Shown: piece by piece, positions 7,873 to 29,728 of the stretch
Position numbering within the stretch: position 1 is the first letter of the stretch
Layout: each line of letters begins with the position of its first letter
Origin: Tepidisphaerales bacterium
GTDB taxonomy: Bacteria > Planctomycetota > Phycisphaerae > Tepidisphaerales > Tepidisphaeraceae
DNA length: 32,000 nucleotides
Reading direction: 5' to 3'
Assembly: GCA_038240605.1 (NCBI GenBank)
Contig: JBBSDP010000011.1
Span: 75,182 to 107,181, forward strand
The notes under the pieces: generated by a model
What the model was told of the DNA's origin: nothing
Databases searched by the model: none
What the model saw: the letters and a program-made list of their open reading frames with translations, nothing else
Program-made: the position numbers and the translations under genes

Positions 7873-7981
7873 CTTCACACCTTCAGTAGGACAGACATTC
7901 CGGTCTTTCAGGCAGTCGCGAACGCGGGCACACCTGCTCGCCGAGCGAATGCATTCTCCATCGCGTCGCCCCCACGATCCA

Positions 7982-8604: not shown

Positions 8605-8630
8605 CGAATGTGATGATACCCTCACATTCG
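8605..8630. promoter_or_regulatory. Candidate TetR operator: perfect 9-bp inverted repeat
   Basis: CGAATGTGA (8605-8613), 8-nt spacer, TCACATTCG (8622-8630). Lies in the 115-bp divergent region between the tetR start (8596) and the MFP start (8712). Confidence 0.45.
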
Positions 8631-8711
8631 CTCGTTTGTCCAGTAAGCGATTTGCGGGGATCGAACCAGGGAAGTTCATCGTCGTCGTGGTCGTCGAGAA
8701 GGAGACACGTC

Positions 8712-15222: not shown

Positions 15223-18200
15223 TCACCACCGGAAGAACCGATAGGGATCGTCCCACTCTTCCGGCGTGTCCAGGTACATCCCACTCAGGTATCGATGCTC
15301 ATCCTGCCCGCCGACCGGTGTTGAAAACCGATCGAGCAACGGCGTCGATCCCGCGACGCCCGCGTTCGCGAGCAACCGCGACAGCAGGAACGACGACCGC
15401 CGGTACGTGCGACGCAGGTTGTGCGAATGCGCAAAATCGAATTGCCACGGGACCAGCTGGCAAAAGACGACCGTGCCTCGACCTCCCTTCGGCGCCGCGA
15501 CGGCAAGTACCCCATCACCCAGTACGGTTCCCCCGCTGGCAACAAGTGATATCTCGCGCGGACCGCGGTCATGAACATCCGCCGGGCCAACGTACGCCAA
15601 CGGAGACGCGAGCCCTGGCCGATCGAAGACGGCGTTGATGTGCTCCCCCTTTCGCAGCGTCATCTCGAACGGCAGCACGGCGTCCGCGCCCGCCTGATCC
15701 ATCCCAATCGCTACGATATTTCCGCCCGCCTCCAGGAACGCCCCCACGTTCTTCTTATTCGACGCTAGCGCATTCGCACCACCGGGTCCCACCACCAGCA
15801 CCTCGTCAGCGGCCAGCTTCGCACGCGCGACATACGCAGTTGCCGCCACGCCGGCCAATTCCAGATGCTTACGGCCTTCGGCCTCGCCGACGTACACCGC
15901 TCGGCGCACCGCCGGCGGTTTCCACGTCGCCGCGTATTGCAGGAGGTTCGTCGCCACCGCTTCCGCGGCGGGATCCGATTCCGTACGGCCCGTCACATCA
16001 AGCTGGCAGAAGAGGACCATGCCGCTTCCCTCGCGGTACTCCAGCAGCGGGCTGTACTGGAGGCTGTATCCGCCATCGACGATCGGCCGAAAATCCCCCC
16101 TTGCCGGCTTCTCGATCAGGACCGATGCCACGCTTCCCCGATTGCCGCAGCGCCACACGCGCGTCACCGGAATGTCGCACCACTTCACCGTCGGCCCATA
16201 TCGCTCCCGGCGCTCATACGTCAGCCGCGGCGCAGTCGTCGTCGCCTCACCGCGCCAGTCGCTCCACGCTTCGCCATCGATCCCCGCCAGCGCCGGATGA
16301 TCCGACACGCGCGGGAAGACGCGCCGCAGCCCATACTCCGCCACACGAAACCCGAGCCGCCGTTCCAGCGCCGGAGCCGTCTGCTCGAAGACGATCACCT
16401 TGAGCCCCGTGCGCACCCGGCTCAGTTGCGGCGCCGGTCCGTCCACCTTAAGCGCGTGTTTCCCGACGATGAGCACATCGACGCCGGTCAAATCCGCATC
16501 CGCATTGACCCGGCGGAATTGGACGCCGATCTTCTGCAGCCACGACGCAGTCTCTCCTTTCGGATCGAACAGCGCGATGGACGACTCGATCTTTGGCGCG
16601 GCATGCGCGGGCAGCACATGAATCGTGAACGAATCCGCCTGCACCTGCCCGTCTCCGAATCGCACCCGGGCGTGCAGCTCGTAAGCGCCCGGCGGCAACT
16701 CCGCCGGCAGTTGAAAATTCAGTGGGATGCGCGCCTGCTGCCCGGTCTCCACCGTCACCTTGGACTCGCCCACCTGCGCCGCCGGAAGCGCAAATGACCA
16801 GTCACAGGCGAACGTGAGCGTCCTTCGCGAATTGTTGATTACGATGAGCTGCTTCTCGACCGTCTCTGCCGCGCGGAAGTTGTGATCCTTGGAAGTGAAC
16901 GCCGATGCCTTGCCCGCGATATACGCCAGCACCGGCTGATTGTTGCGCAGCACGGCCTTCCCCACGGCAGTTGGAATCCAGTCGGCCAGTTCGTAGGCGG
17001 TGTCGATTCGTTCGACGCGCTGGTCGATGAAGTCCGGGCTGAGCCCGGGTCGCTGAAGATTCTCCCAGTCCACCGGCAGCGAGGCGTGGCCGCGCCGCAC
17101 GCCGGGCCCGGCCGTCCAGAACATGCCGAACTCCCACGGCGAGATTCCCGATACGCCCCACGTTCGAAACGCCCGCCACGTGTCGGTGAGGTATTCCGCC
17201 ATAACCGCGTTGCGGTCCTCGAAGCGCGGCGAGCCCATCTCGGTGGGGTAATCCCAGCGCTGCCAGACCTTGCCGGCTTTGAACTGCTCGGCCTCCCAGC
17301 GCAAGTTTGCCTTCTCCCGGTCGCCGATATTGAACGCCCGGTCCCCCATGAACTGCGCGTTCCATTCCGCGAGGCACAATTCCCATGGCACCGCCGCGCT
17401 GCCGAACTCGCGCTCCCCCTTGTACCAGCCGCGGTACATCGCATGGTCCCAGCTGAACGGCGCGCCATATTCGCAGGTGAAGGCCGGCTTCACCCCCGCC
17501 GTCGCCCAATGGCCGAACCAGTCGCACAGCTCCTGGATCGGCGCGAAGTTCGGATAGAAGTTGCTGGTGTGCATCGCGCCGATGTTCCCACCGGCGTGGT
17601 GGTAAACGATTCGCCCCGGGTCCAGCCGGTGCACGATCGCCTCCGCCCGCAGCGCCAGCTTCGCGTTCTTCGTGGACCACTCCTCTCGCGCATCGTGCAG
17701 CCCGTCGATCAGGTCCGGGTTCATGTCCTCCGTGTACCCGGTGGCGTTGTGGCTCATCGCGTAAAAGACGACGGAGGGATGGTTCGAAGCGACGCGCGCG
17801 TAGAACGCCGCATGAACGGCGTACCCGTTCTTCTCATCCGCGTCCGGCGCGTTCCACTCGTACTGCGAGAAATGCGGCTGCGTCAGCGCGACCAGCATCC
17901 CCGCGTCGTCCGCCGCTCTGAGGATCTCGGCGAAGCTCAGGTGGGAGCCCGGCTCGCAGTCGTAGTTGTGCGCGTAAACGAAGTTGATGCCGATCGACTT
18001 GAGCCGTTTCATCGTCTCCAGCGCAGCGGCGTAGTTTGCCGCGCCCGCGCCGATCGTCGCGTTGTCGATCGGCACTGCCGACAAAAACACGCGCGTGCCG
18101 TTCAGGAAAAAATCGCGACCGTCGATCCACAGTTCCCGGAATCCAAATCGCTCCTCCAGCGCCGTATCCAGCACCGCCCCATCCGCCCCGGTCAGCGAAA

Positions 18201-19131
18201 GTTGAACGTCATACATATTCTCCGGCGTGTTCAGGTCCCAAAACCGCTCCGGCTTCCATTTCGCCGTGAAACCGAAACGGCCGCCCGCCGCGTCTTCCGC
18301 TGTGAACGATTTGCTGGCAAACGTCGTCACCTTTCGACCATGATCCGTCACACGCGCCCGCAGCCCGTACGTCTGCCCGGCCGCGAGCCGCTGCAAATCC
18401 GTCCTGAACGTGATCTCCCCGCGCCGTACGGAGGTGTTCACATCAATCGAATCGATTCGCGCCCCAACCGGCGTACTCGTCAGAAGCACGTCGCCGCACA
18501 ATCCGCGCCGCTCCACCGCCCCTTTGATCGTCTTCGCGGTCGCGGTGTCCGCGTAAGAGAGCAACACCCCCTTCAGCGGCATCGCCCGAACGAGGAGGCT
18601 CAGCACATGTGTCTTGCCCGGCTCACACGCCGCCGACAGATCCATCTCCCCGGCGGGAAACCGGATCTCCCCAATCCGCTTCCCATCCACGAACACAACC
18701 GCGTACGAGTTGAGATACTCCACCGACAGTGCGATGCGCCGCCCTTTCCACTCCGACGGGATGGTGATCTCCCGCTGATACCAGGCCGCATCCACCTCTG
18801 CCGGCTTCGCATTCTTAAACGTCGGATTCGGATAGATCGTCTGCGAATCCTTCTCCAGATAATCCCCGCTCCCCGGCCAGTTCCCCGGCACCTTGAAGAA
18901 TCCCCACCCGCCCTCCGGCGACGCCTCACCGCCGGCCGGCTGCCAGCGCCAAAGCCCATTGAGGCAAACGACCTCCCGCGTCGGCGTCGCTTTCCGCCAC
19001 GCCTTCCCCAGGTCCCACACCGCCTTCACCCCCGCCGGCAGCTTCGCGTCATCGCGCTCCGCCCCCTTCGCGCCGCAAATAGAGCTGGCCAAAGCAAGAA
19101 TCGAAACAACCGTGCGAAGGGCGACGTTCAT
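15223..19131 (-). CDS. Large secreted glycoside-hydrolase-family-2-like protein with ~700 aa of uncharacterised C-terminal modules
   Basis: ORF 15223..19224, preferred ATG 19129-19131 (MNVALRTVVSILALASSICGA, a signal peptide). GH2 sugar-binding-domain pattern ...WYQREITIPSEWKGRRIALSVEYLNSYAVVFVDGKRIG.... TIM-barrel-like ...GINFVYAHNYDCEPGSHLSFAEILRAADDAGMLVAL.... The family assignment of the C-terminal half is uncertain. Confidence 0.75.
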   Translation of the reverse strand: MNVALRTVVSILALASSICGAKGAERDDAKLPAGVKAVWDLGKAWRKATPTREVVCLNGLWRWQPAGGEASPEGGWGFFKVPGNWPGSGDYLEKDSQTIYPNPTFKNAKPAEVDAAWYQREITIPSEWKGRRIALSVEYLNSYAVVFVDGKRIGEIRFPAGEMDLSAACEPGKTHVLSLLVRAMPLKGVLLSYADTATAKTIKGAVERRGLCGDVLLTSTPVGARIDSIDVNTSVRRGEITFRTDLQRLAAGQTYGLRARVTDHGRKVTTFASKSFTAEDAAGGRFGFTAKWKPERFWDLNTPENMYDVQLSLTGADGAVLDTALEERFGFRELWIDGRDFFLNGTRVFLSAVPIDNATIGAGAANYAAALETMKRLKSIGINFVYAHNYDCEPGSHLSFAEILRAADDAGMLVALTQPHFSQYEWNAPDADEKNGYAVHAAFYARVASNHPSVVFYAMSHNATGYTEDMNPDLIDGLHDAREEWSTKNAKLALRAEAIVHRLDPGRIVYHHAGGNIGAMHTSNFYPNFAPIQELCDWFGHWATAGVKPAFTCEYGAPFSWDHAMYRGWYKGEREFGSAAVPWELCLAEWNAQFMGDRAFNIGDREKANLRWEAEQFKAGKVWQRWDYPTEMGSPRFEDRNAVMAEYLTDTWRAFRTWGVSGISPWEFGMFWTAGPGVRRGHASLPVDWENLQRPGLSPDFIDQRVERIDTAYELADWIPTAVGKAVLRNNQPVLAYIAGKASAFTSKDHNFRAAETVEKQLIVINNSRRTLTFACDWSFALPAAQVGESKVTVETGQQARIPLNFQLPAELPPGAYELHARVRFGDGQVQADSFTIHVLPAHAAPKIESSIALFDPKGETASWLQKIGVQFRRVNADADLTGVDVLIVGKHALKVDGPAPQLSRVRTGLKVIVFEQTAPALERRLGFRVAEYGLRRVFPRVSDHPALAGIDGEAWSDWRGEATTTAPRLTYERRERYGPTVKWCDIPVTRVWRCGNRGSVASVLIEKPARGDFRPIVDGGYSLQYSPLLEYREGSGMVLFCQLDVTGRTESDPAAEAVATNLLQYAATWKPPAVRRAVYVGEAEGRKHLELAGVAATAYVARAKLAADEVLVVGPGGANALASNKKNVGAFLEAGGNIVAIGMDQAGADAVLPFEMTLRKGEHINAVFDRPGLASPLAYVGPADVHDRGPREISLVASGGTVLGDGVLAVAAPKGGRGTVVFCQLVPWQFDFAHSHNLRRTYRRSSFLLSRLLANAGVAGSTPLLDRFSTPVGGQDEHRYLSGMYLDTPEEWDDPYRFFRW

Positions 19132-19291
19132 GCTCTTTGGTACGGCAAGTCGGCTGATCCGTGGTCGTCGTTCAATCGCTACAAGAGCCGCGGGCAGCGA
19201 GGAATCGGCCACAATTCGTCGCAACCTTTATGAAAATCACACAAGACGATGCGCTGTCGCTCACACGATTCGTAATGATTCCACACAAAAT

Positions 19292-20119
19292 ATGGACTCT
19301 CAGACCATCCAGCGGCAATACGACGACGTCATCGCGGCCCATTACGATCTCGATCCCCAGTCGGTGAACGACCGGGCACTCGACGGCGCGATTCATCAGA
19401 TCCGCAAGCACCACCTCTTCGAGGAAGGAGGCGGGTCGCTCAAGGTCCTCGATGTCGGCGTCGGCACCGGCAAGCTGCTCGCCCGGCTTAAGGAGCTCGG
19501 CGGACATCGCGTCAGCCCGTTTGGCCTCGACTTCTCCGAGAAAATGGTCGAGACGGCCTGCCGCAAGGTCCCGGACCTGGTCGCGGAAGTCGATGACGCC
19601 GCCAACCTCGCCGCGCATTTCACGGCCGAGTCGTTCGACGTCATCTGCACGCACTTCATCACCGGCTACGTCCCGATGGCCACGCTGGCGCCGCAGATTC
19701 ACAGGCGCCTTGCCAAAGGGGGTCACTGGTCGTTTGTCGGCGGCACGCAGGCGGGCTTCCCCGCGCTGCGGGCGACCGCCAATCGAAGGCTTGTGCGCCT
19801 GGCGTTCGGCCGCGGCCGCAAGCTCGCCCCCGAACCGATGACCTGCAATCCCAACGACCGCGCCGAAGTAGTCAAGACGCTCGAGGCCAACGGCTTTGCG
19901 GTACGCGCCGCCGAAACGTTTGAGCCCGGCCTGCTCTTCAGCAACTTCGAGGAATTCATGAGTTTCGGCTATCGCGGCGGATGGCTCACGCCCTTCATCG
20001 AAACGCTGGGCCTGCACAAGGCCGGCCCGATCACGCGGATGCTGCTGGACACGATGGTCTTCCCGATCGAAGACCACCACAGCATCGAAATTGTCCTCGC
20101 GCAAAAGGTGAATGACTGA
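19292..20119 (+). CDS. Class I SAM-dependent methyltransferase
   Basis: ORF 18893..20119. Its upstream part overlaps the GH2-like gene start, so the preferred start is ATG 19292 (MDSQTIQRQYDDVIAAHYD...). Motif I LKVLDVGVGTGKLLARL. Confidence 0.8.
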   Translation: MDSQTIQRQYDDVIAAHYDLDPQSVNDRALDGAIHQIRKHHLFEEGGGSLKVLDVGVGTGKLLARLKELGGHRVSPFGLDFSEKMVETACRKVPDLVAEVDDAANLAAHFTAESFDVICTHFITGYVPMATLAPQIHRRLAKGGHWSFVGGTQAGFPALRATANRRLVRLAFGRGRKLAPEPMTCNPNDRAEVVKTLEANGFAVRAAETFEPGLLFSNFEEFMSFGYRGGWLTPFIETLGLHKAGPITRMLLDTMVFPIEDHHSIEIVLAQKVND

Positions 20120-20122
20120 CGA

Positions 20123-20150
20123 GCCCGCACGCGCATGTGCGCGAGCGGGC
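20123..20150. promoter_or_regulatory. GC-rich intercistronic inverted repeat between the methyltransferase and GT4 genes
   Basis: GCCCGCaCGCGCA (20123-20135) / TGCGCGaGCGGGC (20138-20150): 13-nt arms with one A/A mismatch and a 2-nt centre. Starts 4 nt after the methyltransferase stop. The GGAGG of the GT4 gene follows about 20 nt downstream. Confidence 0.3.
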
Positions 20151-20182
20151 CATGGACGGCGCAGTTACCACGGAGGTGTTCG

Positions 20183-21475
20183 ATGCGCATCGCCATCATC
20201 TCAGAAGTCTTCCTCCCCAAGATCGACGGCGTCGTCAACCGCACGCTGAACCTCGTGCGCCAGCTCCCGCGCCACGGCGATGAACTGCTGGTCGTCTGCC
20301 CGCGCGCGCCCGGCTGCAAAGACTCGCCCGCCCGCGTCGTTGATGTTCCCAGTTTTCCCTTTCCTCCCTATCCGGAGTACCGCATCGGCCTGCCCGGCGA
20401 GGAACTCGTCGAGACGATTCGATCCTTCGCCCCCGACGTGATCCATTACGTCAACCCGTTCGCGTTCGGGTTCCGCTGCCACGATGTGCTGCATCAGGCC
20501 GGCATCGAAGCCCCGACCGTCTTCTCCTTCCACACGCTCTACGGGGAATTCGTCAAGCAATACCGCGTCATGCGCCCCCTCTCGGCGCTCCTCTGGTGGC
20601 TGACGCGCGAGTACCACAATCGGGCTCACCAGAACCTGACCGTCTCCCCGATCATGCGCCAGGAATTGATCGAACGCGACTTCCAGCGCGTCGAGCTGTG
20701 GCCCCCGGCGGTTGACACCGAACGCTTTCACCCCGGCCGGCGCTCTGTCGAAATGCGCGCCCGCCTCACCGGCGGACGCCCCGAGCGCCCGCTGCTCCTC
20801 ACCGTCAGCCGTCTCGCGCCCGAGAAGAACGTCGCCTTCTTGGCAGATGTCCTGCGCGCCATGCCCGACGTCACGCTCGCGATCGTCGGCGATGGTCCCG
20901 GCCGCGCGGATCTGGAACGACGATTTGAAGGAACCGATACTCGCTTCATCGGCTATCTCGCCGGGGATGAACTGGCCACGGCTTACGCCTCCGCCGACGC
21001 GTTCGTCTACGCTTCCGAAACTGAAACGATGGGAAACGTCGTCCTCGAAGCGATGGCCTCCGGCGCGGCGGTCATCGCGCCACGGGCCGGCGGGATCCCC
21101 AACCTCTTCACTCACCAGGAAAGCGGCTTTCTCTACGAGCCGCGCAACCTGGCGGAAGCCGTCAGTTTCACGACCGGCGTCCTTCGCGATTCCACCCTGC
21201 GCGAACAAATCGGCGCCGCGGCACGCGAGGCGGTCGAAGGGCGCAACTGGGTGGAATCGATCGAGCGCGTTCGCGGGGTGTACGTGCAGGCGATTGAACA
21301 GAGCCTTTGTCCTGCCCCGGCCCCCACCTGGCGCGAACCGGTTTCGCGCGCGGTCATGCTGGGTCTGGTCTCGATATTCCGCGCGATCTCGTACCTCGCG
21401 GGCCCCAAGAGCCCCACGCCGGCGGCCGCAGCCGTGTTCGCGCCCAAGGAAGCCACCGAGCCGTCGCTCGTCTGA
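20183..21475 (+). CDS. GT4 glycosyltransferase of the SQD2/SqdX/MgtA-like (lipid-acceptor) subgroup
   Basis: ORF 20135..21475, preferred ATG 20183 after GGAGG. MRIAIISEVFLPKIDGVVNRTLNLVRQL...; ...LWPPAVDTERFHPGRRSVEMRARLTGGRPERPLLLTVSRLAPEKN...; ...IVGDGPGRADLERRF...GDELATAYASADAFVYASETETMGNVVLEAMASGAAVIAPRAGGIPN.... By memory this follows the plant SQD2, cyanobacterial SqdX and actinobacterial MgtA pattern almost block for block. Confidence 0.85.
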   Translation: MRIAIISEVFLPKIDGVVNRTLNLVRQLPRHGDELLVVCPRAPGCKDSPARVVDVPSFPFPPYPEYRIGLPGEELVETIRSFAPDVIHYVNPFAFGFRCHDVLHQAGIEAPTVFSFHTLYGEFVKQYRVMRPLSALLWWLTREYHNRAHQNLTVSPIMRQELIERDFQRVELWPPAVDTERFHPGRRSVEMRARLTGGRPERPLLLTVSRLAPEKNVAFLADVLRAMPDVTLAIVGDGPGRADLERRFEGTDTRFIGYLAGDELATAYASADAFVYASETETMGNVVLEAMASGAAVIAPRAGGIPNLFTHQESGFLYEPRNLAEAVSFTTGVLRDSTLREQIGAAAREAVEGRNWVESIERVRGVYVQAIEQSLCPAPAPTWREPVSRAVMLGLVSIFRAISYLAGPKSPTPAAAAVFAPKEATEPSLV

Positions 21476-22000
21476 TCAGTGCGATGTCGATCGCGCCCAG
21501 CTTTTCCGATCGAACATCAGGAAGTTCATGATCATCGGCACTTCCAGGAACAGCAGGATCACGAACCGAGCCATCCCCTTCGTGTACTTGCGGTTGAATT
21601 CCGCCATGTCATGTTCGATGTGGAACTTCTTGTGGCTCCAATTCTGAAGCTGGTAGGCCACCGGGATCATGATCGCGTACGCCCAGATCGGCAGCGTCGG
21701 GATTTCCAGCACCGCCGACACGAGGAGACCCACCAGCCCCGCCGTCACCACCAGAACGCGGAACGGCAGGCAGATCGATAGCGACAGCAGGTATGCGATC
21801 CCCAGTCCGACCGGCGCCCAGGGGCTGCCCGTGAGCCGCAAGACGATCCCGTAGACCGCGTACCAGATGATGAACAGCGCCGCCAGGTGCAGCACGTTAA
21901 TCCCCAGTTGCGAGTGCCGGCACAGGTGCCGCGCATACAACTCGCGGAAATCAACACGCAGCAGGCTGAACGGCTGCGACGGGATTGCCTGAACTTCCAT
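21476..22000 (-). CDS. Small polytopic membrane protein, tentatively Mpo1/DUF962-like
   Basis: ORF 21476..22015, preferred ATG 21998-22000 (MEVQAIPS...) after GGGAGG. About 5 hydrophobic segments. ...YARHLCRHSQLGINVLHL... and ...YQLQNWSHKKFHIEHDMAEF... resemble the His-containing DUF962 blocks, but the family call is weak. Confidence 0.6.
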   Translation of the reverse strand: MEVQAIPSQPFSLLRVDFRELYARHLCRHSQLGINVLHLAALFIIWYAVYGIVLRLTGSPWAPVGLGIAYLLSLSICLPFRVLVVTAGLVGLLVSAVLEIPTLPIWAYAIMIPVAYQLQNWSHKKFHIEHDMAEFNRKYTKGMARFVILLFLEVPMIMNFLMFDRKSWARSTSH

Positions 22001-24131
22001 AGGAGGACCTCCCAAAGAACGCGGACCTGACCACCCGGAAGGCCGCGGCGGCCAGCAACAAAACGAACGGCCGGTTCAACACATCAACGATTGTCGCGCA
22101 CGCCTCGCGAATCACCGCCGGATCGCTCGATAGCGACGGCGTGATCTTCAACACGTTCGGCTCGTACTGACAAAACCCCGCGAGCACCGGCATCCCGCGT
22201 GAATGTCGCAACATCCCCAGCACGTAAAACAGATAGAGCCGATTGCGAAGCCAGCGCTGCGGCCAGCGCCGCGCATCCAGCTCGATCCCGATCAGCAGCC
22301 CAAACACCCGCACCGCGCGCACGGCCCGGTTCGATCCTACTCCCGCTTTCAATAGCCGCTCAACCAGCTCCCCCGACTCGGCGACGCGCGCCTCCAGGCC
22401 CAGCGCCGCCGCTCGCGACAGCACGTTCAGCACCGTCTTGTACCCGTATTCATACCCATAGCGCGCCTGGAACTGCGCGGGGAGATCCGAGCCCGCCCGC
22501 GCGAGCTGTGCCGCCAGGCCCGCCGAATACATCACCAGCGCGAACGGGAACATCATGTCCGAGACGCCCTTGCCGACGACCAGCAGGTCCGGCGAGATCC
22601 CCATCGCCACCGACCGCGCGAACGGGCCGGTGCGATACATCCCCGTCTGCACTTCGTCCACCAGCAGCAGGTATCCCCAGCGCGCTCGCCCCGCCGCCAG
22701 GTGCCGCGCCACCGCCTCCGGCACCGCCCGCACGCCCCCCACGCCCTGCACCAGCTCGAGCTGAACCACCGCCACGGGCGCCTCCGCCAGCAATCGATCG
22801 ATCCGCGCCAGGGCGTCCGGCGCGAACGGGTCGACGTAGACAACGTCGTCATACAGCGGCGCGATGTGCTGCTTGTACGACGGCTTGGCCGTTCCGGTCA
22901 GTGCGAACAGCGTCTTGCCGCCGAACCCCGATGCCAGAGCCAGCACGCGCCGTCGTGGCGATTGCGCCACCAGCGCCATCTTCAGCGCGTTCTCCACCGC
23001 CGTCGCGCCGCTGACGGCGGGTACGCAATGCTCCAGCCCGCTCAACTCCCGCAGCCGTGCCGTGACCTGCTCTACGACCTCGCCCCCGTTCCCCAGCGAC
23101 TCGATCTCGCGCGCATATCCCGGCGGGTTGTGGCCGCGCACACTGCACGCAACACCGCTGACGCCGTCGTACACGCGCCGGCCCCCCTCGGCGAACACGA
23201 AATCCCCCGCCGCCCGCACCTCCGCCTTCTCAAATCCCGACGCCCGAATGGCCTTAAAGAGCGACGCGCTATAGAGCCGTCGGAAGAGCGCCGCGCGATA
23301 TGGCAGATCGGTTTCGATCGCCCTCAGATTCTGCTCGACCGATTCGAAAAACGCCGGATCATTCGACGAAAGACACGACATGAAGTGCAGTGAGCAAATC
23401 GTGTTCGGCTGATACGTCGTGGAGTGAAACGTCGTCTTACCCTTGCGGTTCCAGTGCTCGTACAACTCCCGGCGCGCCGCGAACGCGCCGAAGGCGAGGT
23501 CTCGGTTCGCGAACGAATCATCGAAGACGACGATGTCGGGCGACACCTTCGTCACCGCCCCGCCGCGACCGTCGCGAATGGCCGCAAGACTTTGCCTCGA
23601 GACGGCGGTGATCCATAGCGGCCGCCTTCCCGTCGACCCCGGTTGAAACAAGGATTGGATCTCCTCCGCCGCCGACTCAAAATCACCCACGGACTTTTCG
23701 CCCACGATCAGCGCTATGAACCCAAACTCAGCATCCTTCGGCGCGGCCGCGGCGACCGACTCCACTACCGTCAGCCCCGGCAGAAATTCGATCAGCTCCC
23801 CGTTCGCGCCAGGCGCCGAGGCGAACGGACCGAGGCGGCTCTCAGGGTCGATGATCAACCCGTGGGTCGAGCGCCCTTCGACGTCAGCGGCATATCGCGC
23901 TAGCTTGATCGCGCCGCCCAGCGCTTCGTCGAAGCCGTTGGCCAGATAGGTCTGAAATTCGTGCGGCCCGCCGTCGCTCCCGCGCTCCTCCCACGTCATC
24001 TGCGCGTATTGCTCCAGGCAGTAACAGACCTGCGTGACGTGCGGGTTGACGTAGAGCCGGAACAGGTTCGGCATCTGCTCCCGGATCATCCGGGCGAAGG
24101 TCTCATTGATGGTGGGCGACGACGGCGTCAT
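21951..24131 (-). CDS. Class-III (PLP) aminotransferase with an N-terminal degenerate aminotransferase-like pseudo-domain
   Basis: 726 aa. C-terminal domain: ...GHNPPGYAREI..., ...SGATAVENALKMAL..., ...LLLVDEVQTGMYRTGPFA...SPDLLVVGKGVSD... (canonical Asp and Lys present). N-terminal ~330 aa: ...YLANGFDEALGGAIKLARY... and ...SPDIVVFDDSFANRDLAFGAF...TFHSTTYQPN.... Confidence 0.85.
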   Translation of the reverse strand: MTPSSPTINETFARMIREQMPNLFRLYVNPHVTQVCYCLEQYAQMTWEERGSDGGPHEFQTYLANGFDEALGGAIKLARYAADVEGRSTHGLIIDPESRLGPFASAPGANGELIEFLPGLTVVESVAAAAPKDAEFGFIALIVGEKSVGDFESAAEEIQSLFQPGSTGRRPLWITAVSRQSLAAIRDGRGGAVTKVSPDIVVFDDSFANRDLAFGAFAARRELYEHWNRKGKTTFHSTTYQPNTICSLHFMSCLSSNDPAFFESVEQNLRAIETDLPYRAALFRRLYSASLFKAIRASGFEKAEVRAAGDFVFAEGGRRVYDGVSGVACSVRGHNPPGYAREIESLGNGGEVVEQVTARLRELSGLEHCVPAVSGATAVENALKMALVAQSPRRRVLALASGFGGKTLFALTGTAKPSYKQHIAPLYDDVVYVDPFAPDALARIDRLLAEAPVAVVQLELVQGVGGVRAVPEAVARHLAAGRARWGYLLLVDEVQTGMYRTGPFARSVAMGISPDLLVVGKGVSDMMFPFALVMYSAGLAAQLARAGSDLPAQFQARYGYEYGYKTVLNVLSRAAALGLEARVAESGELVERLLKAGVGSNRAVRAVRVFGLLIGIELDARRWPQRWLRNRLYLFYVLGMLRHSRGMPVLAGFCQYEPNVLKITPSLSSDPAVIREACATIVDVLNRPFVLLLAAAAFRVVRSAFFGRSSYGSSGNPVAAVQPAAC

Positions 24132-24137
24132 ACGTTC

Positions 24138-26177
24138 TCACATGCTCTGCTTGCCCGGGTTGGCGCGAATGACCGCAAACGTTCGCTTCAAATAACCCTC
24201 CACCGCTCCCCGGTTCTTGCGTACCGTGAACATGTCGCACGACACGCAGTCGCTGTCGCGAAACTCCGAATGCGGCAGCCCATCCCGGCGGATGTACCGA
24301 AGCTGAATCTTTCGCACGGGCAGCGATCGGTGGTCCTTCCAGAACTGGAGGAACTCATCGGGCGTGAAGAACAGCTCCACGTGCCACGCCAGCCGTCGCG
24401 TCAATGTGTGCATGAGCCAGGCCGTTACCCGGTTTTCCTCCAGCCGGTCCCAGAGCCGGCCGAGGCTGTCGCGCGGCACTTCCAGCACCGGAGAACTCGC
24501 GTCGCCGGCATCGTTGTAATACTGATAGAGCGTCGCCGCACTGCCCGATGCATTGGCCTTGCGCACCTCCACGTTCGCCGCCCGCTCATCGCGCAGCGCA
24601 TCGAGCAACAACGGGCCGTCCGGATCCTCCAGCGTCTGTTCGCGCACGTAGTAGCGCGACGCCGGCTTCACCCGCATGCGCAGACGCAACAGCAGCACGT
24701 CGCTCGAGAGGTTGTAAACGTGCTCGCGGAATTCAGGCGCCTCACGCCGAGCGGCGATGATCCGGTCGGCGTGCGGGTCGTAGAAGACCGCCCGGGTGAA
24801 CGTGTCGGCGACGCAGGAATAATCCGCCGCCGATCCGTGAATGGGGACGAAGAAAGCGGTGCCGAGCGTGACGTACGAATAATTCGGGATGACGTACAGG
24901 TCCTGCCGATCGGGTGCATGACAGTTTCGGCGGCGAACCTCCTCCCCCCTCTCCCAGTACTCTGGGAGAGGGTTGGGGTGAGGGCAGTTCCCTCGGAGGC
25001 CGGGGCGAAAACCCTCACCCCCGCCCTCTCCCGGCGTACCGGGAGAGGGAGAATCAATTTGGGGCACCGAATCTGTCACGCGCTCCTGCCGATCCGCGGA
25101 GAGGAAGTCGCGCGCCCGGCGGATCGTCGTCCCGCAATCCGCTCCCACCAGATCAGGGGCATAGCGCCGGATGCGATTCAGTTTCACGGTGGAGACGATC
25201 GTCCGTCCCGGATACCGATGCCCGAAATGGTTGACCCCATTGTTGTATCCGACCACTTTCACGTACGGCACGTTGTACGGGTTATAGAGCGCGAGCAATT
25301 CGCCGAACGATGCGGGCCGCAAAGTGCCCACGTTCCAGCTTCGCAGCAATGCGTTCTTGCGCGCCATTCGTTCCAGGACGAACGCCGCCAGCAGGCCAAC
25401 GCCGGTCAGCGCCAGCGCAGCGCAGACGATTTGCAGCAACAGGTGGAAAAACGTGGCGGGCGGGTGTTCCGCCAGCCGTTCCCGCCACGCCCGATTTTCC
25501 CCCAGCATGACCAGGCACCGCACGCGCCGCCGAGAACCCGATGCGGGCGATTGCGTTTCGCCGTCGGCCCACGGCCGACGGATCTCCCGATCGATCGCCG
25601 CAAAAAGTTCCGACCCCTCCAGGCAGCACCCGCGCAATCGACGCGAGACCAGCGGATACAGGAAGCCGAGCCTGCGAAGCGATGCCGTCGTTCGCGATTC
25701 GGGACTGAGCACGCACCCGGTCTCGAAGAGGACGATCGGCATCGTCGTGGCGTCGTCCGTTCCACCCTGAACGTCGCCCAGCATCTGTAGGACGTCGCTA
25801 ATCCCGCTGCCGAACCGGTATTCTGTGACGACAATCACTCGCCGCGCCGCAAGTCGCTGGGCCGTCCCGATCCAGCGCTGCGCCACGGCCGCAACCTCTG
25901 GCGAAAACGTCGGCGGCAGGAACAGCACCAGCGATGCAATCTGTCCCTGCATTGTCGGCGATGACTGTGGCGACCCGCGCGAGTCATCGATGAACCGCAC
26001 CGCGCCCCCTCCATCGCGCGCCGTGGCCGCCTTTGCTACCGAGTGGATGGAGTAGTCCGAGGCCACCCCGTCCCCCAGCCCCACGACCAGCACCGCTTCC
26101 GCGGCGTCGGTCGCTCCAGCGCGGCCTGCTTCCACGGCTGTCGTTTCAGGCGCCGTAAGTAAAGAGAGGCTGGCCAT
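24138..26177 (-). CDS. Membrane-anchored FAD-binding (PCMH/VAO-type, ALO/DprE1-like) oxidoreductase-like protein with an unknown ~230-aa N-terminal domain; carries an in-frame repeat-element insertion
   Basis: 679 aa. One TM segment (FFHLLLQIVCAALALTGVGLLAAFVL). ...YVKVVGYNNGVNHFGHRYPG... and ...YVTLGTAFFVPIHGSA... resemble FAD_binding_4. The C-terminus ...IQLRYIRRDGLPHSEFRDSDCVSCDMF... resembles the ALO-type cap. The family call is tentative. The start overlaps the psd-like stop by 32 nt. Confidence 0.7.
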   Translation of the reverse strand: MASLSLLTAPETTAVEAGRAGATDAAEAVLVVGLGDGVASDYSIHSVAKAATARDGGGAVRFIDDSRGSPQSSPTMQGQIASLVLFLPPTFSPEVAAVAQRWIGTAQRLAARRVIVVTEYRFGSGISDVLQMLGDVQGGTDDATTMPIVLFETGCVLSPESRTTASLRRLGFLYPLVSRRLRGCCLEGSELFAAIDREIRRPWADGETQSPASGSRRRVRCLVMLGENRAWRERLAEHPPATFFHLLLQIVCAALALTGVGLLAAFVLERMARKNALLRSWNVGTLRPASFGELLALYNPYNVPYVKVVGYNNGVNHFGHRYPGRTIVSTVKLNRIRRYAPDLVGADCGTTIRRARDFLSADRQERVTDSVPQIDSPSPGTPGEGGGEGFRPGLRGNCPHPNPLPEYWERGEEVRRRNCHAPDRQDLYVIPNYSYVTLGTAFFVPIHGSAADYSCVADTFTRAVFYDPHADRIIAARREAPEFREHVYNLSSDVLLLRLRMRVKPASRYYVREQTLEDPDGPLLLDALRDERAANVEVRKANASGSAATLYQYYNDAGDASSPVLEVPRDSLGRLWDRLEENRVTAWLMHTLTRRLAWHVELFFTPDEFLQFWKDHRSLPVRKIQLRYIRRDGLPHSEFRDSDCVSCDMFTVRKNRGAVEGYLKRTFAVIRANPGKQSM
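24901..25094. mobile_element. MITE/REP-like palindromic element with an 11-bp flanking direct repeat, inserted in frame in the CDS
   Basis: Direct repeat TCCTGCCGATC at 24901-24911 and 25084-25094. Inverted termini TGACAGTTTCGG (24919-24930) / CCGAATCTGTCA (25067-25078), 11/12 complementary. Internal hairpins at 24947-24972 and 25024-25049, plus the pairing 24975-24984 / 25012-25021. Confidence 0.65.
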
Positions 26178-27036
26178 ATTTCACCTTCTCGTTGGGCGAC
26201 ACTTCATCCGTGATGTCGTCGGCCGGCGGGGTGATCAGCACCACCGTCGAACCCAGCTCGAACGTCCCCACCCACTGCCCGCGCTCCACCGACACCGGCG
26301 GCGAAAAAACCTCCGCCGCCGCCACGCGCTTCTTCGGCCGGAAGTGCGGCGCCAGCGGAAGCCGGATGTTCCCCACGCCCCACCCCGCCACCATCACCAG
26401 CAGGCACGGGCCCAGCCGGGTCGAGAATCGCAGGATCATCCGCTCGTTGAGCGTGTAGACCGGATAGGCCGACGTCTGGAACGGCGGGTGCACCAGCAGC
26501 CGTGCGCCGGGAACATGAATCGCTTTCTCCAGCAACCCGTCCTGCGGACTGAAGACGCGATGACAGTCGATCGGCGACAGAAACACGATCGCGAACCGCC
26601 CCTGCTCGAAGGGGCGCGGATCCGTCCGCGGCAAGAGCGATTCCAGGCTGTACTCGATCCCCTTGAGTGTCAGCAGCCGTCCCTGCTCCACCCGCCCCAC
26701 ATCCTGCACCGTCCCGTCCGATGGACACAGAAACTGGCGAGTTCCCTGCGGGATCGGACGGAACTGCGGCTTGATCCCGCGCGTGAAGAGCGCATTCAGC
26801 GACGGATACTCGGCCAGCGGCTTCTCCGCTTCCCCTTCGTTCAACCCCGGCGGATATTTTTTCGTGAAGATGCCCCGGTAGAGCGAAGGCCGCAGCCGGC
26901 GCGCGGGAATGCGCAGGCGCGAGAGGCGGATCCCCAGCGCCGCCACCAGCAGCTTGGGGAGGCTGCCATGGATCTGCTTCGCCTGGCGGAACTGCTCCCG
27001 CCGGATCCGCCGCGAATTTCGTTTCACCTTGATCAT
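26146..27036 (-). CDS. psd: Phosphatidylserine decarboxylase family proenzyme (short type)
   Basis: 296 aa. ...FLCPSDGTV..., ...VFLSPIDCHRVFSP... (the LSPxDYHR-type block), and the ...FELGSTVVL... self-cleavage LGST motif. Confidence 0.85.
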   Translation of the reverse strand: MIKVKRNSRRIRREQFRQAKQIHGSLPKLLVAALGIRLSRLRIPARRLRPSLYRGIFTKKYPPGLNEGEAEKPLAEYPSLNALFTRGIKPQFRPIPQGTRQFLCPSDGTVQDVGRVEQGRLLTLKGIEYSLESLLPRTDPRPFEQGRFAIVFLSPIDCHRVFSPQDGLLEKAIHVPGARLLVHPPFQTSAYPVYTLNERMILRFSTRLGPCLLVMVAGWGVGNIRLPLAPHFRPKKRVAAAEVFSPPVSVERGQWVGTFELGSTVVLITPPADDITDEVSPNEKVKYGQPLFTYGA

Positions 27037-27063
27037 GAGCGGAATTGGATGCAGGTTCGAGAA

Positions 27064-28596
27064 TCAGGCCTCAGCGGCGACCACCCCCGCGACGCGCAGG
27101 GCGTTGGCGATGATCGTCAGCGCCGGGCCCACGCCCAGCGACGTCGGAAAGAAACTCCCGTCGACGACAAAGACATTCGGATGCCCGAACACCCGGCAAT
27201 CCCGCCACAGGACCGCTTCGCGCGGGTCGGTGCCGAATCGCAGCGTCCCGCACTGGTGGGCCACGTGCTCCTCCGATGCAAATCCGCTGTTCAGGCAGAG
27301 CATCGCCCCCGCGCGATACAGGATCCGCGACATCAATTCCCGGAGCGTCTTCCCCCGTTCCAGGTCATACGCGCCAAAGCGATGGGCGATGCGCGGCCGG
27401 CCATCCGCGCCCCACGACACGGCGTTCGACGGATCCGGCAAATCTTCGATGATGCCGACCAGCGGCAGGATGCGCCGCCGCAGGAACTGAATCAGCCAGC
27501 GCGGCAGAAAAGCCGGCGCCGATTTCGCCGCCAGCAGCGGCCCCGGCACCGGCAGCGACTGCACCAGCCCCAGCTTGTGCGCATAGGCCGGCGTCCCAAA
27601 GTAATAATCCGCGAACCCCACCTGCTTCACGAAATTCGAATCCGCCTCCGTCCGCCCGCGAAACATCCCCGCCACGATCGGCGAAAGATGAACCATGTAA
27701 TTCCGCCCGATCAGCGGCGCGTTCGCCCCCGACTTCAGCAACACCAAAGGCGAACCCAGCGCCCCCGCCGCCAGCACATATCGGCTTCCCCGGTAAACCG
27801 TCCGCGCCCCGCTCCCCCGATCCACCGCTTCGACACCCTGCGCTTCCCCCCTCCCATCCAGCAGCAGTCGCTCCACTTCGGCGTTCGTCACCACCCGCAA
27901 CGGCAACCCGTCGGCCACCGCCTGATCCAGCAACTGCGCGGAGGATTTGCGCGCCCCGGTCGGGCAGATGTAACCGGCGCACACGTTGCACTGAATGCAG
28001 CGCGACGAATCGATCGCCAGCGGAAGCCGGAACGGACGCAGCCCCTCGGCGCGATTCCCGTCGATCAGCCGTCGATTCATCGGATGCAGCGGCAACGGCC
28101 CGGCCGTCGTCACATGACGCGGACGGTGCAGCGGACCAAAGTCCGCGTCGGCGTCGTCCGCGCAGCCGCACACCCCGAAAAGCCGTTCGGCTTCGGTGTA
28201 GTGCGCCTCCAGCTCGTCGTATTGAACCGGCCAGTCCCAGATCGCCCGCGGAATACGGCTCCCGTAATGCCGCCCCGGCTGAAAATCATCCCGGCTCGGC
28301 CGCAATAGTGCCGCCCCGTACAAGCTCGTCCCCCCACCCAGCACGCCCCCCATGTAAAGCCGTTTGCTCGCCCCGTTCACCTCGACATCGCGGTCATCGT
28401 ACGGCTTTTTCTCAATCAGCATCGCCCGTTCATCATGCCCCTGGGCATCGATGCCCGGCCCGCCGGATCGTTCCGCCCCATACCGTTTCCCGCGCTCCAG
28501 CAGGATCACCGACTTGCCCGCCCTGGCACAGGCATACGCCAGCGTAGCGCCCCCCGCGCCGCTGCCAATGACGATCACATCACCATCATGCGCCAT
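27064..28596 (-). CDS. GMC-family FAD-dependent oxidoreductase
   Basis: ORF 27064..28641 (TTG), preferred ATG 28594-28596 after GGAG: MAHDGDVIVIGSGAGGATLAYACARAGKSVILLERG (GxGxxG). ...CIQCNVCAGYICPTGA.... C-terminal ...HQCGTLRFG...NVFVVDGSFFPTSLGVGPALTIIANALR is the GMC_oxred_C pattern. Confidence 0.85.
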   Translation of the reverse strand: MAHDGDVIVIGSGAGGATLAYACARAGKSVILLERGKRYGAERSGGPGIDAQGHDERAMLIEKKPYDDRDVEVNGASKRLYMGGVLGGGTSLYGAALLRPSRDDFQPGRHYGSRIPRAIWDWPVQYDELEAHYTEAERLFGVCGCADDADADFGPLHRPRHVTTAGPLPLHPMNRRLIDGNRAEGLRPFRLPLAIDSSRCIQCNVCAGYICPTGARKSSAQLLDQAVADGLPLRVVTNAEVERLLLDGRGEAQGVEAVDRGSGARTVYRGSRYVLAAGALGSPLVLLKSGANAPLIGRNYMVHLSPIVAGMFRGRTEADSNFVKQVGFADYYFGTPAYAHKLGLVQSLPVPGPLLAAKSAPAFLPRWLIQFLRRRILPLVGIIEDLPDPSNAVSWGADGRPRIAHRFGAYDLERGKTLRELMSRILYRAGAMLCLNSGFASEEHVAHQCGTLRFGTDPREAVLWRDCRVFGHPNVFVVDGSFFPTSLGVGPALTIIANALRVAGVVAAEA

Positions 28597-28764
28597 CCAT
28601 GCTCCGCGGGATTCACCCAACCTGCGCGCACGTTCAGGCAATTACCTTTGATTTACAAGTGCGATACAATCCATTTAACCAAACCTTCACCCGACCTTCG
28701 CGCAGCGACGTGAGGCGACAGCCGTACCATCGATCCGCTGATCAACGAGCCGAGGGAACCTGAC

Positions 28765-29034
28765 ATGACCGACGCAAACGAAATCAGCCCATCCGTCCTG
28801 CGGGCCATCTACCAGATCTCCGGCTTCACCCCCGCCCCCGTCACCGTCGCCCAGATCACCGACGTCATTCCCCTCCCGGCAGATCAGTTCGGACCCATCC
28901 TCCAACACCTCGAGTCCCAGGGCTGGATCCGAACCGACGCCGCCAGCGAATCCCTCCAGCTCACCCCCCAGGGCATCCAACAAGCCAGCACGATTCCGCC
29001 GGTGGCCGAGCCGCCGCTGTTTCAGGATATTTGA
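28765..29034 (+). CDS. Small winged-helix (MarR-like wHTH) protein
   Basis: 89 aa. ...VLRAIYQISGFTPAPVTVAQITDVIPLPADQFGPILQHLESQGWIRTDAASESLQLTPQG... has a wHTH recognition-helix/wing pattern. ATG start. Confidence 0.6.
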   Translation: MTDANEISPSVLRAIYQISGFTPAPVTVAQITDVIPLPADQFGPILQHLESQGWIRTDAASESLQLTPQGIQQASTIPPVAEPPLFQDI

Positions 29035-29044
29035 GGAATGTCGT

Positions 29045-29728
29045 TTGGGGATAAAGTTCGTGGGCAACCTGTTGATAAGCGGATTCGGGTCTGTCCCACG
29101 AGTTGTCAAGGTGCATGAAGATGCGTTAGTCTGCACGGTCGTGAGCACAAAATATCCAGAACTTGCCGAGTTGATCAAGCAGAAGTCTTTGCGGTGGGGC
29201 ATGTTTATGCTCGCCAGCGGCAAATCATCGAAATATTACATCGATGGCAAACTGACCTCCATGGACCCCGCGGGAGCGGCCTGTATTGCCAGGGCAATCC
29301 TCAGTGAAATCGATGGGATGCCGGTTCACGCGGTAGGAGGCATGGACATGGGTGCCACGCCCATCATGGGTGCCGTCGCCTGTACCAGCCACCATGCCCG
29401 GCGGCCATTGCCAACCTTCATTGTGCGCAAGGACGTTAAGTCGCACGGCACGATGAAGCTGATCGAAGGGCCGATTCCTGAAGCGCCCTGTAACGTCGTC
29501 ATCGTTGATGATGTGGTGACAACCGGCGACTCGATCCTCAAGGCGATTGATGCGGTAACGGCCAAGGGCATCACGGTGCTGTTGGCGATTTCCGTGCTTG
29601 ATCGGAATGCCGGAGCCGCGGAGGCGCTTAAAAAACGTGGCATTCCCTACCAGCCACTCGTCACTCTGCGGGACATCGGAGTAAACGATGGCGAAAGTCG
29701 ATCAAGCAGCCAATTCGGCACTGGCTAA
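29045..29728 (+). CDS. pyrE: Orotate phosphoribosyltransferase-like type I PRTase
   Basis: The ORF begins at TTG 29045, with GAGGA 7 nt upstream. Family-like N-terminus if started at GTG 29141 (STKYPELAELIKQKSLRWGMFMLASGKSSKYYIDGK). PRPP loop VVIVDDVVTTGDSILKAI; ...FIVRKDVKSHGT.... About 47-55 % GC by hand count, lower than the core genes. Start uncertain. Confidence 0.75.
   Translation: MGIKFVGNLLISGFGSVPRVVKVHEDALVCTVVSTKYPELAELIKQKSLRWGMFMLASGKSSKYYIDGKLTSMDPAGAACIARAILSEIDGMPVHAVGGMDMGATPIMGAVACTSHHARRPLPTFIVRKDVKSHGTMKLIEGPIPEAPCNVVIVDDVVTTGDSILKAIDAVTAKGITVLLAISVLDRNAGAAEALKKRGIPYQPLVTLRDIGVNDGESRSSSQFGTG

Follow-up and report, generated by a model that had tools for sequence, protein, structure and literature searches.

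A conserved planctomycete gene cluster and its possible part in membrane-lipid head-group synthesis

The window analysed here is a stretch of 32,000 nucleotides from a Tepidisphaerales bacterium (assembly GCA_038240605.1, contig JBBSDP010000011.1, positions 75,182 to 107,181), and it carries at 19292-28596 a gene cluster that is real, uncharacterised and kept together across the phylum Planctomycetota. The core of the cluster consists of five minus-strand genes, for a GMC-family flavoprotein dehydrogenase, a pyruvoyl proenzyme of the phosphatidylserine decarboxylase (PSD) family, a FAD enzyme of 679 residues, a fused class-III aminotransferase and a small membrane protein, and it is adjoined by genes for a methyltransferase and a family 4 glycosyltransferase (GT4). 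What is new here is best filed as a five-gene head-group-building operon without a characterised counterpart, extending the PlcP/Agt-type lipid-renovation neighbourhood. The initial annotation of this DNA, made from the letters alone, knew of no characterised system with such a gene composition, and a full-text literature search likewise found neither such a system nor any publication on the cluster. The explanation that we favour, with a confidence somewhat short of even, is that the cluster encodes a membrane-lipid head-group pathway attached to a phosphorus-sparing lipid-renovation module, and that it yields, via a serine-like intermediate, an N-methylated amino lipid free of phosphorus.

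Conservation of the cluster and its neighbours

Related loci were identified by scanning one genome per GTDB species, and the gene content of the resulting 61 loci was determined by tblastn with the window proteins. All of them belong to Planctomycetota save one labelled only 'Bacterium', and they represent Gemmataceae, Isosphaeraceae (Singulisphaera acidiphila, Aquisphaera, Paludisphaera), Tepidisphaeraceae (Phycisphaerae), Planctomycetaceae, Pirellulales, Fuerstiella and Candidatus Kuenenia. The five core genes are complete in 51 of the 61 loci and keep the order GMC enzyme, PSD, FAD enzyme, aminotransferase and small membrane protein, with identical order and strand in all 51; the remaining ten loci are truncated where their contigs end. 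The GMC gene is conserved in 55 of the 61. Amino-acid identity among the collinear loci is 31-80% across at least six planctomycete lineages, and this core arrangement far exceeds chance. Genes called independently on a 1.7-Mb contig of a metagenome-assembled genome showed an identical layout. The initial annotation had taken the five minus-strand genes for one operon and had named a lack of co-occurrence in related genomes as grounds against its proposal; collinearity on a single strand in every complete locus bears out that the five behave as one unit.

The same annotation had tied the methyltransferase and the GT4 to the core, and this connection is upheld. The methyltransferase adjoins the core in 47 of the 61 loci and the GT4 in 30, always beside the methyltransferase, which makes the GT4 the least tightly linked gene of the cluster. 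These genes lie divergently upstream of the core in 20 loci, convergently downstream in 23 and co-directionally downstream in four. Since the adjacency survives three rearrangements at 31-80% identity, it is strong evidence for a shared function.

Clustering of all flank open reading frames (ORFs) of the 61 loci brought out recurrent neighbours that are related to lipids. A PlcP-like metallophosphoesterase gene stands beside the cluster in 21-24 loci, a PAP2 phosphatase gene in nine and an alpha/beta-hydrolase gene in ten. The metallophosphoesterase is 39% identical (4e-67) to a gene beside sinR/sinI in Sinorhizobium meliloti, which we take to be plcP (SMc00171), and it reaches 57.7 bits with LpxH models, for which the cutoff is 134. 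The S. meliloti replicon in question (L063, CP090106.1, 3.72 Mb) is labelled 'pSymB' but appears to be the chromosome, as it carries sinI, sinR and plcP, and the label is misleading. Annotated relatives of the metallophosphoesterase are encoded directly upstream of a glycosyltransferase in Pseudomonas aeruginosa and Roseomonas. The GT4, in which Pfam finds Glyco_transf_4 and Glycos_transf_1 domains, shares 31% identity over 388 aa (2e-44) with the glycosyltransferase that P. aeruginosa encodes directly after PlcP, at the position of Agt1. Its best NCBIfam names, GpgS (GlcNAc-phosphatidylglycerol synthase) and Mgs, are all lipid glycosyltransferases and all sub-threshold, the GpgS model matching at 1.7e-35 with 122 bits against a cutoff of 480. 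The best NCBIfam names for the PAP2 protein are undecaprenyl-diphosphatases.

An upstream block of genes for the alpha/beta-hydrolase, PAP2, GT4 and methyltransferase is seen in a Planctomycetaceae locus (L046, 1677-6781) and in Candidatus Kuenenia (L037, 4769-7542). The former also includes PlcP, and there all five genes form one co-directional block, divergent from the core operon. It is established that PlcP frees diacylglycerol (DAG) from phospholipids and that its partners make glycolipids or the betaine lipid diacylglyceryltrimethylhomoserine (DGTS) (PMC4796936, PMC8528852, PMC3972451), and both plcP-agt and plcP-btaAB operons are documented (PMC4796936; PMC8528852). The lipid O-acyltransferase OlsI of S. 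acidiphila is an alpha/beta-hydrolase (PMC12971839), and following this precedent the hydrolase beside the cluster could be an acyltransferase instead of a lipase. The presence of PlcP, PAP2 and the hydrolase in the flanks, together with the Agt-like GT4, strengthens the lipid reading that the initial annotation had put forward from the window genes. No transporter or regulator gene recurs in the flanks of the 61 loci, nor does any flippase, polymerase, Wzx/Wzy or lipid A gene.

Enzymes encoded by the cluster

All seven ORFs were found where the initial annotation had placed them, with the same spacings and the same convergent junction. The plus strand encodes the methyltransferase (19292-20119, class-I and dependent on S-adenosylmethionine (SAM), 275 aa) and the Agt-like GT4 (20135-21475), which probably starts at M17 (base 20183). 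On the minus strand lie the genes for the GMC enzyme (27064-28596, 510 aa from the ATG, the ORF reaching a TTG at 28641), the PSD-family proenzyme (26146-27036, 296 aa), the FAD enzyme (24138-26177, 679 aa, membrane-anchored), the fused class-III aminotransferase (21951-24131, 726 aa) and the small membrane protein (21476-22000, 174 aa, the ORF reaching 22015). In this order the core genes are spaced by +27, -32, +6 and -50 nt, and the stop of the GT4 gene (21475) abuts that of the convergent small-protein gene (21476) with zero bases between them. A promoter and terminator scan of 19000-29300 gave nothing that exceeds shuffled expectation. Hydropathy places the FAD enzyme and the small protein in the membrane as integral proteins and marks the aminotransferase, methyltransferase and GMC dehydrogenase as soluble. 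As to the domains claimed for these proteins, GMC, PSD, Aminotran_3, GT4 and methyltransferase were recovered by Pfam or NCBIfam, and the Mpo1-like assignment of the small protein fell below the cutoff.

The PSD-family protein is clearly placed by PF02666 (1.9e-45, 155 bits, cutoff 22) and TIGR00163 (149 bits, cutoff 111.75), and it matches E. coli PSD (7cnw) at 4e-26. Alignment puts its LGST self-cleavage site at residues 261-264 (26245-26256, minus strand). Between 48 and 51 of 51 orthologues keep the equivalents of D90, D142, H144 and LGST (S254), whose roles are known from the E. coli enzyme (D90, D142-H144-S254; PMC7952604). The position of the phosphate-contacting Tyr137 is different, being Phe in 51/51 cluster PSDs and Tyr in 122/125 of the nearest outgroup PSDs. 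In E. coli this Tyr hydrogen-bonds the lipid phosphate, and across the family the position is Tyr in 85% and Arg in 15% (PMC7952604). At the position of Ser166 the cluster PSDs have Leu or Pro, in a column that is variable in the outgroup too. The cluster-type PSDs also form a separate group in a search of 1.8 billion representative proteins, scoring 280-347 bits before the scores drop to 160 or less. Judged from these alignments, the exchange of Tyr for Phe defines the clade; it affects a residue that contacts the head group, and it suggests a substrate that lacks phosphate at that place. Many of the orthologues carry hydrophobic segments by hydropathy.

In the GMC enzyme both PF00732 (GMC_oxred_N) and PF05199 (GMC_oxred_C) are found. 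Its best solved relatives are the alpha subunit of the FAD-dependent glucose dehydrogenase (FAD-GDH) of Burkholderia cepacia (6a2u/8hdd; 1e-28, residues 5-506) and next the large subunit of Gluconobacter fructose dehydrogenase (FDH; 1e-17), and we read it as a member of the Fe-S sugar-dehydrogenase subfamily, acting on sugar or polyol hydroxyls. A four-cysteine motif, C200-x2-C203-x2-C206-x4-C211-P (27961-27999, minus strand), is a putative Fe-S site; each of the four Cys is conserved in at least 97% of 43 orthologues, and the motif probably holds a cluster. We take its CxxCxxCxxxxCP spacing to be ferredoxin-like and the motif to correspond to the 3Fe-4S region of FAD-GDH and FDH, although the spacing presumably differs from that of FAD-GDH itself. 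Genes for a cytochrome c or for a small (Tat hitch-hiker) subunit are absent from the window cluster and do not recur in the 61 loci. Choline dehydrogenase models give 29-50 bits with cutoffs above 600, and the enzyme is thus not BetA-like. With the aminoglycoside oxidase 7dve (6'''-hydroxyparomomycin oxidase) only the C-terminal tail, residues 447-508, is matched (3e-7). The parallel to the paromamine 6'-oxidase and neamine transaminase pair that had been drawn initially is thereby reduced to an analogy, the closest relatives being FAD-GDH and FDH.

The 679-aa protein belongs to a family of at least 476 clusters that are annotated as hypothetical. It is composed of an N-terminal truncated Rossmann domain resembling short-chain dehydrogenases/reductases (SDR; residues ~28-237), a hydrophobic segment detected by hydropathy between the two domains (residues 250-268; 25374-25430, minus strand) and a C-terminal domain of the vanillyl-alcohol oxidase/p-cresol methylhydroxylase (VAO/PCMH) type. 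A Pfam scan of the window protein gave no hit; some homologues carry PF01565 (FAD_binding_4), and the family profile matches VAO-family chains weakly (E ~0.04-0.08). The AlphaFold model (predicted TM-score, pTM, 0.74) retrieved 8qmy, 2vfs and 4ff6 from the PDB by Foldseek at 3e-10 to 2e-9 with probability 1.00, the relatives being L-galactonolactone dehydrogenase, alditol oxidase and DprE1. When modelled apart, the N-terminal 240 residues (pTM 0.76) matched 6aqy, 6bi4 and NDUFA9 at 2e-4 to 1e-2, and the domain resembles truncated extended SDRs such as GDP-fucose synthetase, RfbB and NDUFA9. It is poorly conserved, and no YxxxK or other catalytic motif is conserved in it within the family. The predicted fold and the one strongly hydrophobic segment agree with the initial description of a TM-anchored FAD oxidase-like protein, and on the model the protein is a membrane-anchored flavoenzyme of the DprE1/alditol-oxidase type.

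The window copy of this gene carries an insertion that looks like a miniature inverted-repeat transposable element (MITE). The element, at 24901-25094, measures 172 nt and is bordered on both sides by 11-nt direct repeats (TCCTGCCGATC); it contains 38-nt inverted repeats (87% complementary) as well as two perfect 11-nt hairpins. The resulting in-frame insertion of 183 nt has no stop codon and adds 61 residues, including 'PHPNPLPEYWERGE', which in the homologue alignment are unique to the window copy and have low pLDDT in the model.

In the aminotransferase the C-terminal half is intact, with Aminotran_3 on residues 305-684 (7e-37) and the pyridoxal-phosphate (PLP) lysine K521 in 'VVGKG' (22569-22571, minus strand); GK and DEVQTG are conserved in the orthologues. 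PigE (4ppm, 1e-21) is the best solved relative, followed by acetylornithine aminotransferases, and the enzyme is closest to omega-transaminases. The N-terminal half (~1-295) is a class-III domain as well, but a degenerate one that lacks the PLP lysine; the lysine position reads 'FDESF' and is Asp, Glu or Ser across orthologues. PF00202 is found in the N-terminal halves of 10/24 orthologues (best 2.9e-6) and their profile matches the acetylornithine aminotransferase 2eh6 at 1.9e-4, in agreement with the double-domain class-III enzyme described initially; direct comparison of the two halves by hhalign was not significant. The combination of a degenerate N-terminal half and an intact C-terminal half makes the aminotransferase a fused pseudo-dimer. 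Searches against plasmids gave only ordinary single-domain matches of the GabT/ArgD type, spanning half the query. The window enzyme ends in a hydrophobic tail of ~40 residues (segments 677-707; 21951-22070), which includes the 50-nt overlap with the start of the small-protein gene. As a C-terminal hydrophobic segment is found in only 2/48 sequences, the tail is specific to the window genome.

The small protein, rich in His, has four hydrophobic segments by hydropathy, which we take as four membrane helices, and H25, H29, H38, H123, N35, Q119 and E153 are invariant among 28 orthologues. PF06127 (DUF962) stays below its cutoff of 24 with 15.7 bits (E=0.016), only 4/28 orthologues match it (best E=0.0029), and hhalign with the Mpo1-like protein of P. 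aeruginosa was not significant (probability 2.5%). The initial assignment to Mpo1/DUF962 is thus not sustained at threshold, and the protein may be Mpo1/DUF962-like. In P. aeruginosa (L062, NZ_CP042268.1, 6656-6973) the PlcP-Agt1 operon has a gene annotated 'Mpo1-like protein' at a distance of 1.6 kb, with cyaB between them. Such a gene is absent from the PlcP loci of Roseomonas, Mitsuaria and Thiodictyon, and its proximity in P. aeruginosa may be a coincidence.

The methyltransferase is matched by Methyltransf_25/11/12 and has a conserved C-terminal extension, GYRGGWLTPF. Its only match to a lipid methyltransferase is a weak one, to Legionella PmtA (E=8e-4). Among annotated replicons the best match, in Neorhizobium, lies beside an aromatic amino-acid lyase and an ABC transporter and is uninformative. 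An identity with OlsG was considered and rejected, since the Singulisphaera locus lies at ~5.14 Mb and Sinac_1600 is expected near 2 Mb from the gene numbering.

Proposed pathway and alternative explanations

The pathway favoured here would start from DAG freed by PlcP or PAP2, which would receive a polar head, from the GT4 where this is present. The two flavoenzymes would oxidise hydroxyls of the head to a carbonyl or carboxyl, and the aminotransferase would add an amino group to yield a serine-like alpha-amino-acid intermediate. This would be decarboxylated by the PSD-like enzyme to a primary amine, which the methyltransferase would N-methylate. The product predicted by this scheme, a phosphorus-free amine or quaternary-ammonium lipid, would substitute for phosphatidylethanolamine (PE) or phosphatidylcholine (PC). 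The scheme is built on the need of a PSD-family enzyme for a free alpha-amino acid, which calls for a chain of oxidation, transamination and decarboxylation that would employ all core enzymes except the small membrane protein. That the lipid should be free of phosphorus is favoured because in several lineages the methyltransferase gene is co-oriented with those of PlcP, PAP2 and GT4 and because known PlcP operons make phosphorus-free surrogates. By this operon logic, where the methyltransferase gene is transcribed together with that of PlcP, the enzyme would more probably modify a lipid free of phosphorus than produce PC. The pathway is further favoured by the synteny of the loci, by their lipid-related neighbours, by the hydrophobic segments of the FAD enzyme, the small protein and many PSD orthologues, from which we count three membrane-bound proteins, by the kinship of both flavoenzymes with oxidoreductases of sugars and polyols and of the aminotransferase with omega-transaminases, and by the Phe that replaces Tyr137 in an otherwise catalytically intact PSD. 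In a broader form, the cluster would stand for an undescribed lipid class common to Planctomycetota, anammox bacteria included, which could be a phosphorus-free N-methylated amino lipid or an amino-glycolipid, with its head built on the lipid and a PSD recruited to a non-phospholipid. We hold this to be somewhat less likely than not and advance it tentatively.

Several observations weigh against this pathway. No simple path from a pyranosyl sugar to an alpha-amino acid is seen, which makes the step from the product of the GT4 to the substrate of the PSD hard to draw. Class-III aminotransferases usually aminate aldehydes or ketones and not alpha-keto acids, and the small membrane protein has no role in the scheme. 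The GT4 is lacking from 17 loci that have the methyltransferase, Isosphaeraceae among them. The window of 32 kb contains no PlcP gene, and no match to the proteobacterial Pho-box consensus, which may not apply in Planctomycetota. The window copy of the FAD enzyme might be impaired by its 61-residue insertion. Lastly, E. coli PSD retains ~50% of its activity with Y137F (PMC7952604), so that phosphatidylserine (PS) as the substrate is compatible with the Tyr-to-Phe change.

In an alternative explanation the cluster would make PE and PC from phosphatidylglycerol (PG) independently of PssA, by reactions on the lipid itself. The GMC enzyme would oxidise the 2'-hydroxyl of the glycerol head to a ketone and the alditol-oxidase-like enzyme its CH2OH to COOH; transamination would give PS, possibly via phosphatidylserinol, PSD would convert PS to PE and the methyltransferase PE to PC, with GT4, PlcP and PAP2 as a neighbouring renovation module that acts separately. 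The attraction of such a route is that it arranges the GMC enzyme, FAD enzyme, aminotransferase, PSD and methyltransferase in one linear chain of family-typical chemistry, and that the closest enzyme relatives are alditol oxidase and polyol dehydrogenases. It accords as well with a PSD that exceeds the TIGR00163 equivalog cutoff and keeps the D-H-S residues and LGST, and with a GT4 that is dispensable in many loci. PC and PE are known to occur throughout Planctomycetota, including anammox bacteria. The lipids of S. acidiphila also fit, consisting of PC, PG, phosphatidic acid, trimethylornithine lipid and unidentified spots, with PE not a major component (PMC12493201). Yet the Phe found in all 51 cluster PSDs where 122/125 outgroup PSDs have the phosphate-contacting Tyr fits this route less well, and a block such as that of L046, with the methyltransferase next to PlcP, PAP2 and GT4, would pair PC synthesis with PC breakdown. 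The match of the methyltransferase to PmtA is marginal, and the small membrane protein is again left without a role. On balance we regard this route, the main rival, as unlikely, though it deserves to be kept in mind.

The proposal of the initial annotation, an aminated and perhaps methylated glycolipid or aminolipid, can be cast as a glycosyl-DAG made by the GT4, of which the GMC enzyme would oxidise a sugar CH2OH or CHOH before transamination and methylation, PSD and the small protein being peripheral. Its lipid context stands: the GT4 is Agt-like, PlcP and PAP2 would supply DAG, both flavoenzymes resemble sugar-hydroxyl oxidoreductases, the aminotransferase resembles omega-transaminases that aminate aldehydes and ketones, and cationic amino-sugar lipids are known in bacteria, as made by GpgSDF (PMC12713373). 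The gene distribution is at odds with it, since PSD is in the invariant core (51/51) while the GT4 is the most dispensable gene (30/61) and is absent from the 17 loci mentioned above. The decarboxylase and the second flavoenzyme would have nothing to do, and the similarity to aminoglycoside 6'-oxidases is confined to the C-terminal 60 residues (7dve, 3e-7). In this form the proposal appears rather improbable.

We give little credence to a modification of an envelope glycan or of lipid A, or to the formation of an amino sugar on a polyprenyl-phosphate carrier, by DprE1-like oxidation and transamination after the logic of Ara4N or GlcN3N, with the LpxH-like and PAP2 proteins acting on lipid A or undecaprenyl phosphate. 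The DprE1 fold, the undecaprenyl-diphosphatase names of PAP2 and the sub-threshold LpxH matches of the metallophosphoesterase would suit it, and GT4 enzymes also build lipopolysaccharide cores. The metallophosphoesterase is nevertheless far closer to S. meliloti PlcP (4e-67) than to the LpxH models and its annotated relatives sit in PlcP-glycosyltransferase operons; the flanks have no recurring flippase, polymerase, Wzx/Wzy or lipid A genes, and a PSD-family enzyme has no known precedent in glycan pathways. Very unlikely, too, is soluble-metabolite chemistry at the membrane, be it that head groups set free by PlcP, such as choline, ethanolamine or glycerol phosphate, are salvaged, or that a polyamine or compatible solute is synthesised. 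Pairs of GMC enzyme and class-III aminotransferase do occur in choline and polyamine catabolism, PSD-family enzymes such as PsiD can act on free amino acids, and three of the cluster enzymes (aminotransferase, methyltransferase and GMC) are soluble by hydropathy. Against this stand the two integral membrane proteins, a GMC enzyme that is not BetA-like (29-50 bits with cutoffs above 600), the lack of any transporter or regulator recurring in the flanks, and a literature search that found no characterised soluble pathway with such a gene context.

Relation to known systems and other features of the window

The nearest known neighbourhoods are the PlcP-Agt operons (S. meliloti SMc00171; P. aeruginosa PA3219-PA3218; SAR11 HTCC7211), with which the planctomycete loci share a PlcP homologue (39%), an Agt-like GT4 (31%) and the common logic of turning phospholipid-derived DAG into a phosphorus-free lipid. 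The known operons consist of two genes and make monoglucosyldiacylglycerol (MGDG) or glucuronosyldiacylglycerol (GADG). In the planctomycete cluster, on the other hand, the GT4 always comes with the methyltransferase and with a five-gene oxidase/aminotransferase/decarboxylase operon, and PlcP is present in about a third of the loci and not in the window. For the methyltransferase and the core operon the closest functional analogy is plcP-btaA-btaB, a PlcP-linked system in which DAG becomes the zwitterionic N-methylated phosphorus-free lipid DGTS and a SAM-dependent N-methyltransferase acts last. No cluster protein matches a BtaA-type SAM 3-amino-3-carboxypropyl transferase in Pfam or NCBIfam, and in contrast to DGTS synthesis the amine would come from oxidation and transamination and the carboxyl would be removed, not kept.

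Compared with the PssA-Psd-PmtA route, the cluster has in common a PSD with intact D-H-S triad and LGST, scoring above the TIGR00163 cutoff and paired with a small class-I methyltransferase. It differs by the Phe in place of Tyr137 and the gap from 280 to 160 bits that sets its PSDs apart, by having no pssA nearby and by the company of flavoenzymes and an aminotransferase. Keto-intermediate chemistry is carried out on a lipid-linked sugar by DprE1/DprE2 and on the nucleotide-sugar precursor of a lipid A modification by ArnA/ArnB. The FAD domain of the cluster shares the DprE1/alditol-oxidase fold and follows an SDR-like domain, and oxidation before transamination is the logic of ArnA/ArnB; the SDR-like domain, however, has no conserved YxxxK, identity to DprE1 is 11-13% and the aminotransferase is of class III and not of the DegT/ArnB type.

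A likeness to GpgSDF, which makes glucosaminyl-phosphatidylglycerol in P. aeruginosa, lies in the best NCBIfam name of the GT4, GpgS, and in the attachment of an amino-bearing, charge-changing group to a membrane lipid. Unlike that system, the cluster has no homologue of the deacetylase or flippase, and its amine would arise by transamination instead of being delivered as GlcNAc. The oxidase/transaminase pairs of aminoglycoside 6'-amination (NeoQ/NeoN, LivQ) likewise combine a GMC flavoenzyme and a class-III aminotransferase to convert an alcohol to an amine, but the cluster GMC enzyme has its nearest relatives among Fe-S sugar dehydrogenases and carries the four-Cys motif.

The membranes of Planctomycetota are unusual, and the phylum is abundant in soils, wetlands, oceans and wastewater. 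Should the cluster make a phosphorus-free amino lipid, this would reveal a lipid of the whole phylum together with biomarker genes for it, along with a new way in which a head group with cationic or zwitterionic character is assembled on the lipid itself. It would also provide a second PSD-family enzyme outside phospholipid metabolism, where PsiD, a fungal tryptophan decarboxylase of this family, already acts. If conversion of PG to PS, PE and PC is true instead, the cluster would be a new route to the commonest bacterial phospholipids. Two unusual fusion enzymes of the cluster, the pseudo-dimeric aminotransferase and the protein that joins an SDR-like to a VAO domain, are new enzyme architectures worth structural study. 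The cluster also holds a divergent PSD clade. Mutants are feasible in planctomycetes other than Singulisphaera. In Singulisphaera, too, they can be made (PMC12493201).

None of the window genes outside the cluster recurs with it in related loci. Upstream of the GMC gene and divergent from it lies an ORF of 89 aa (28765-29034, plus strand) with no counterpart in the 61 loci. At the other end of the cluster, a protein of 1333 aa (15223-19224, minus strand) is encoded divergently from the methyltransferase at a distance of 67 nt, and this gene does not recur beside the cluster elsewhere; it has a GH2-type sugar-binding N-terminal domain and weak similarity to beta-galactosidase/glucuronidase. A resistance-nodulation-division (RND) efflux system comprises an AcrB-type pump (10008-13289), an outer-membrane factor (13344-14864) and a probable adaptor ORF (8610-9998). 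The window further holds genes for a hemolysin-III family protein (7225-8073), a second methyltransferase (6008-7165), a CobA/HemD fusion (3116-4921), a PGDH-like dehydrogenase and a phosphoribosyltransferase (PRTase).

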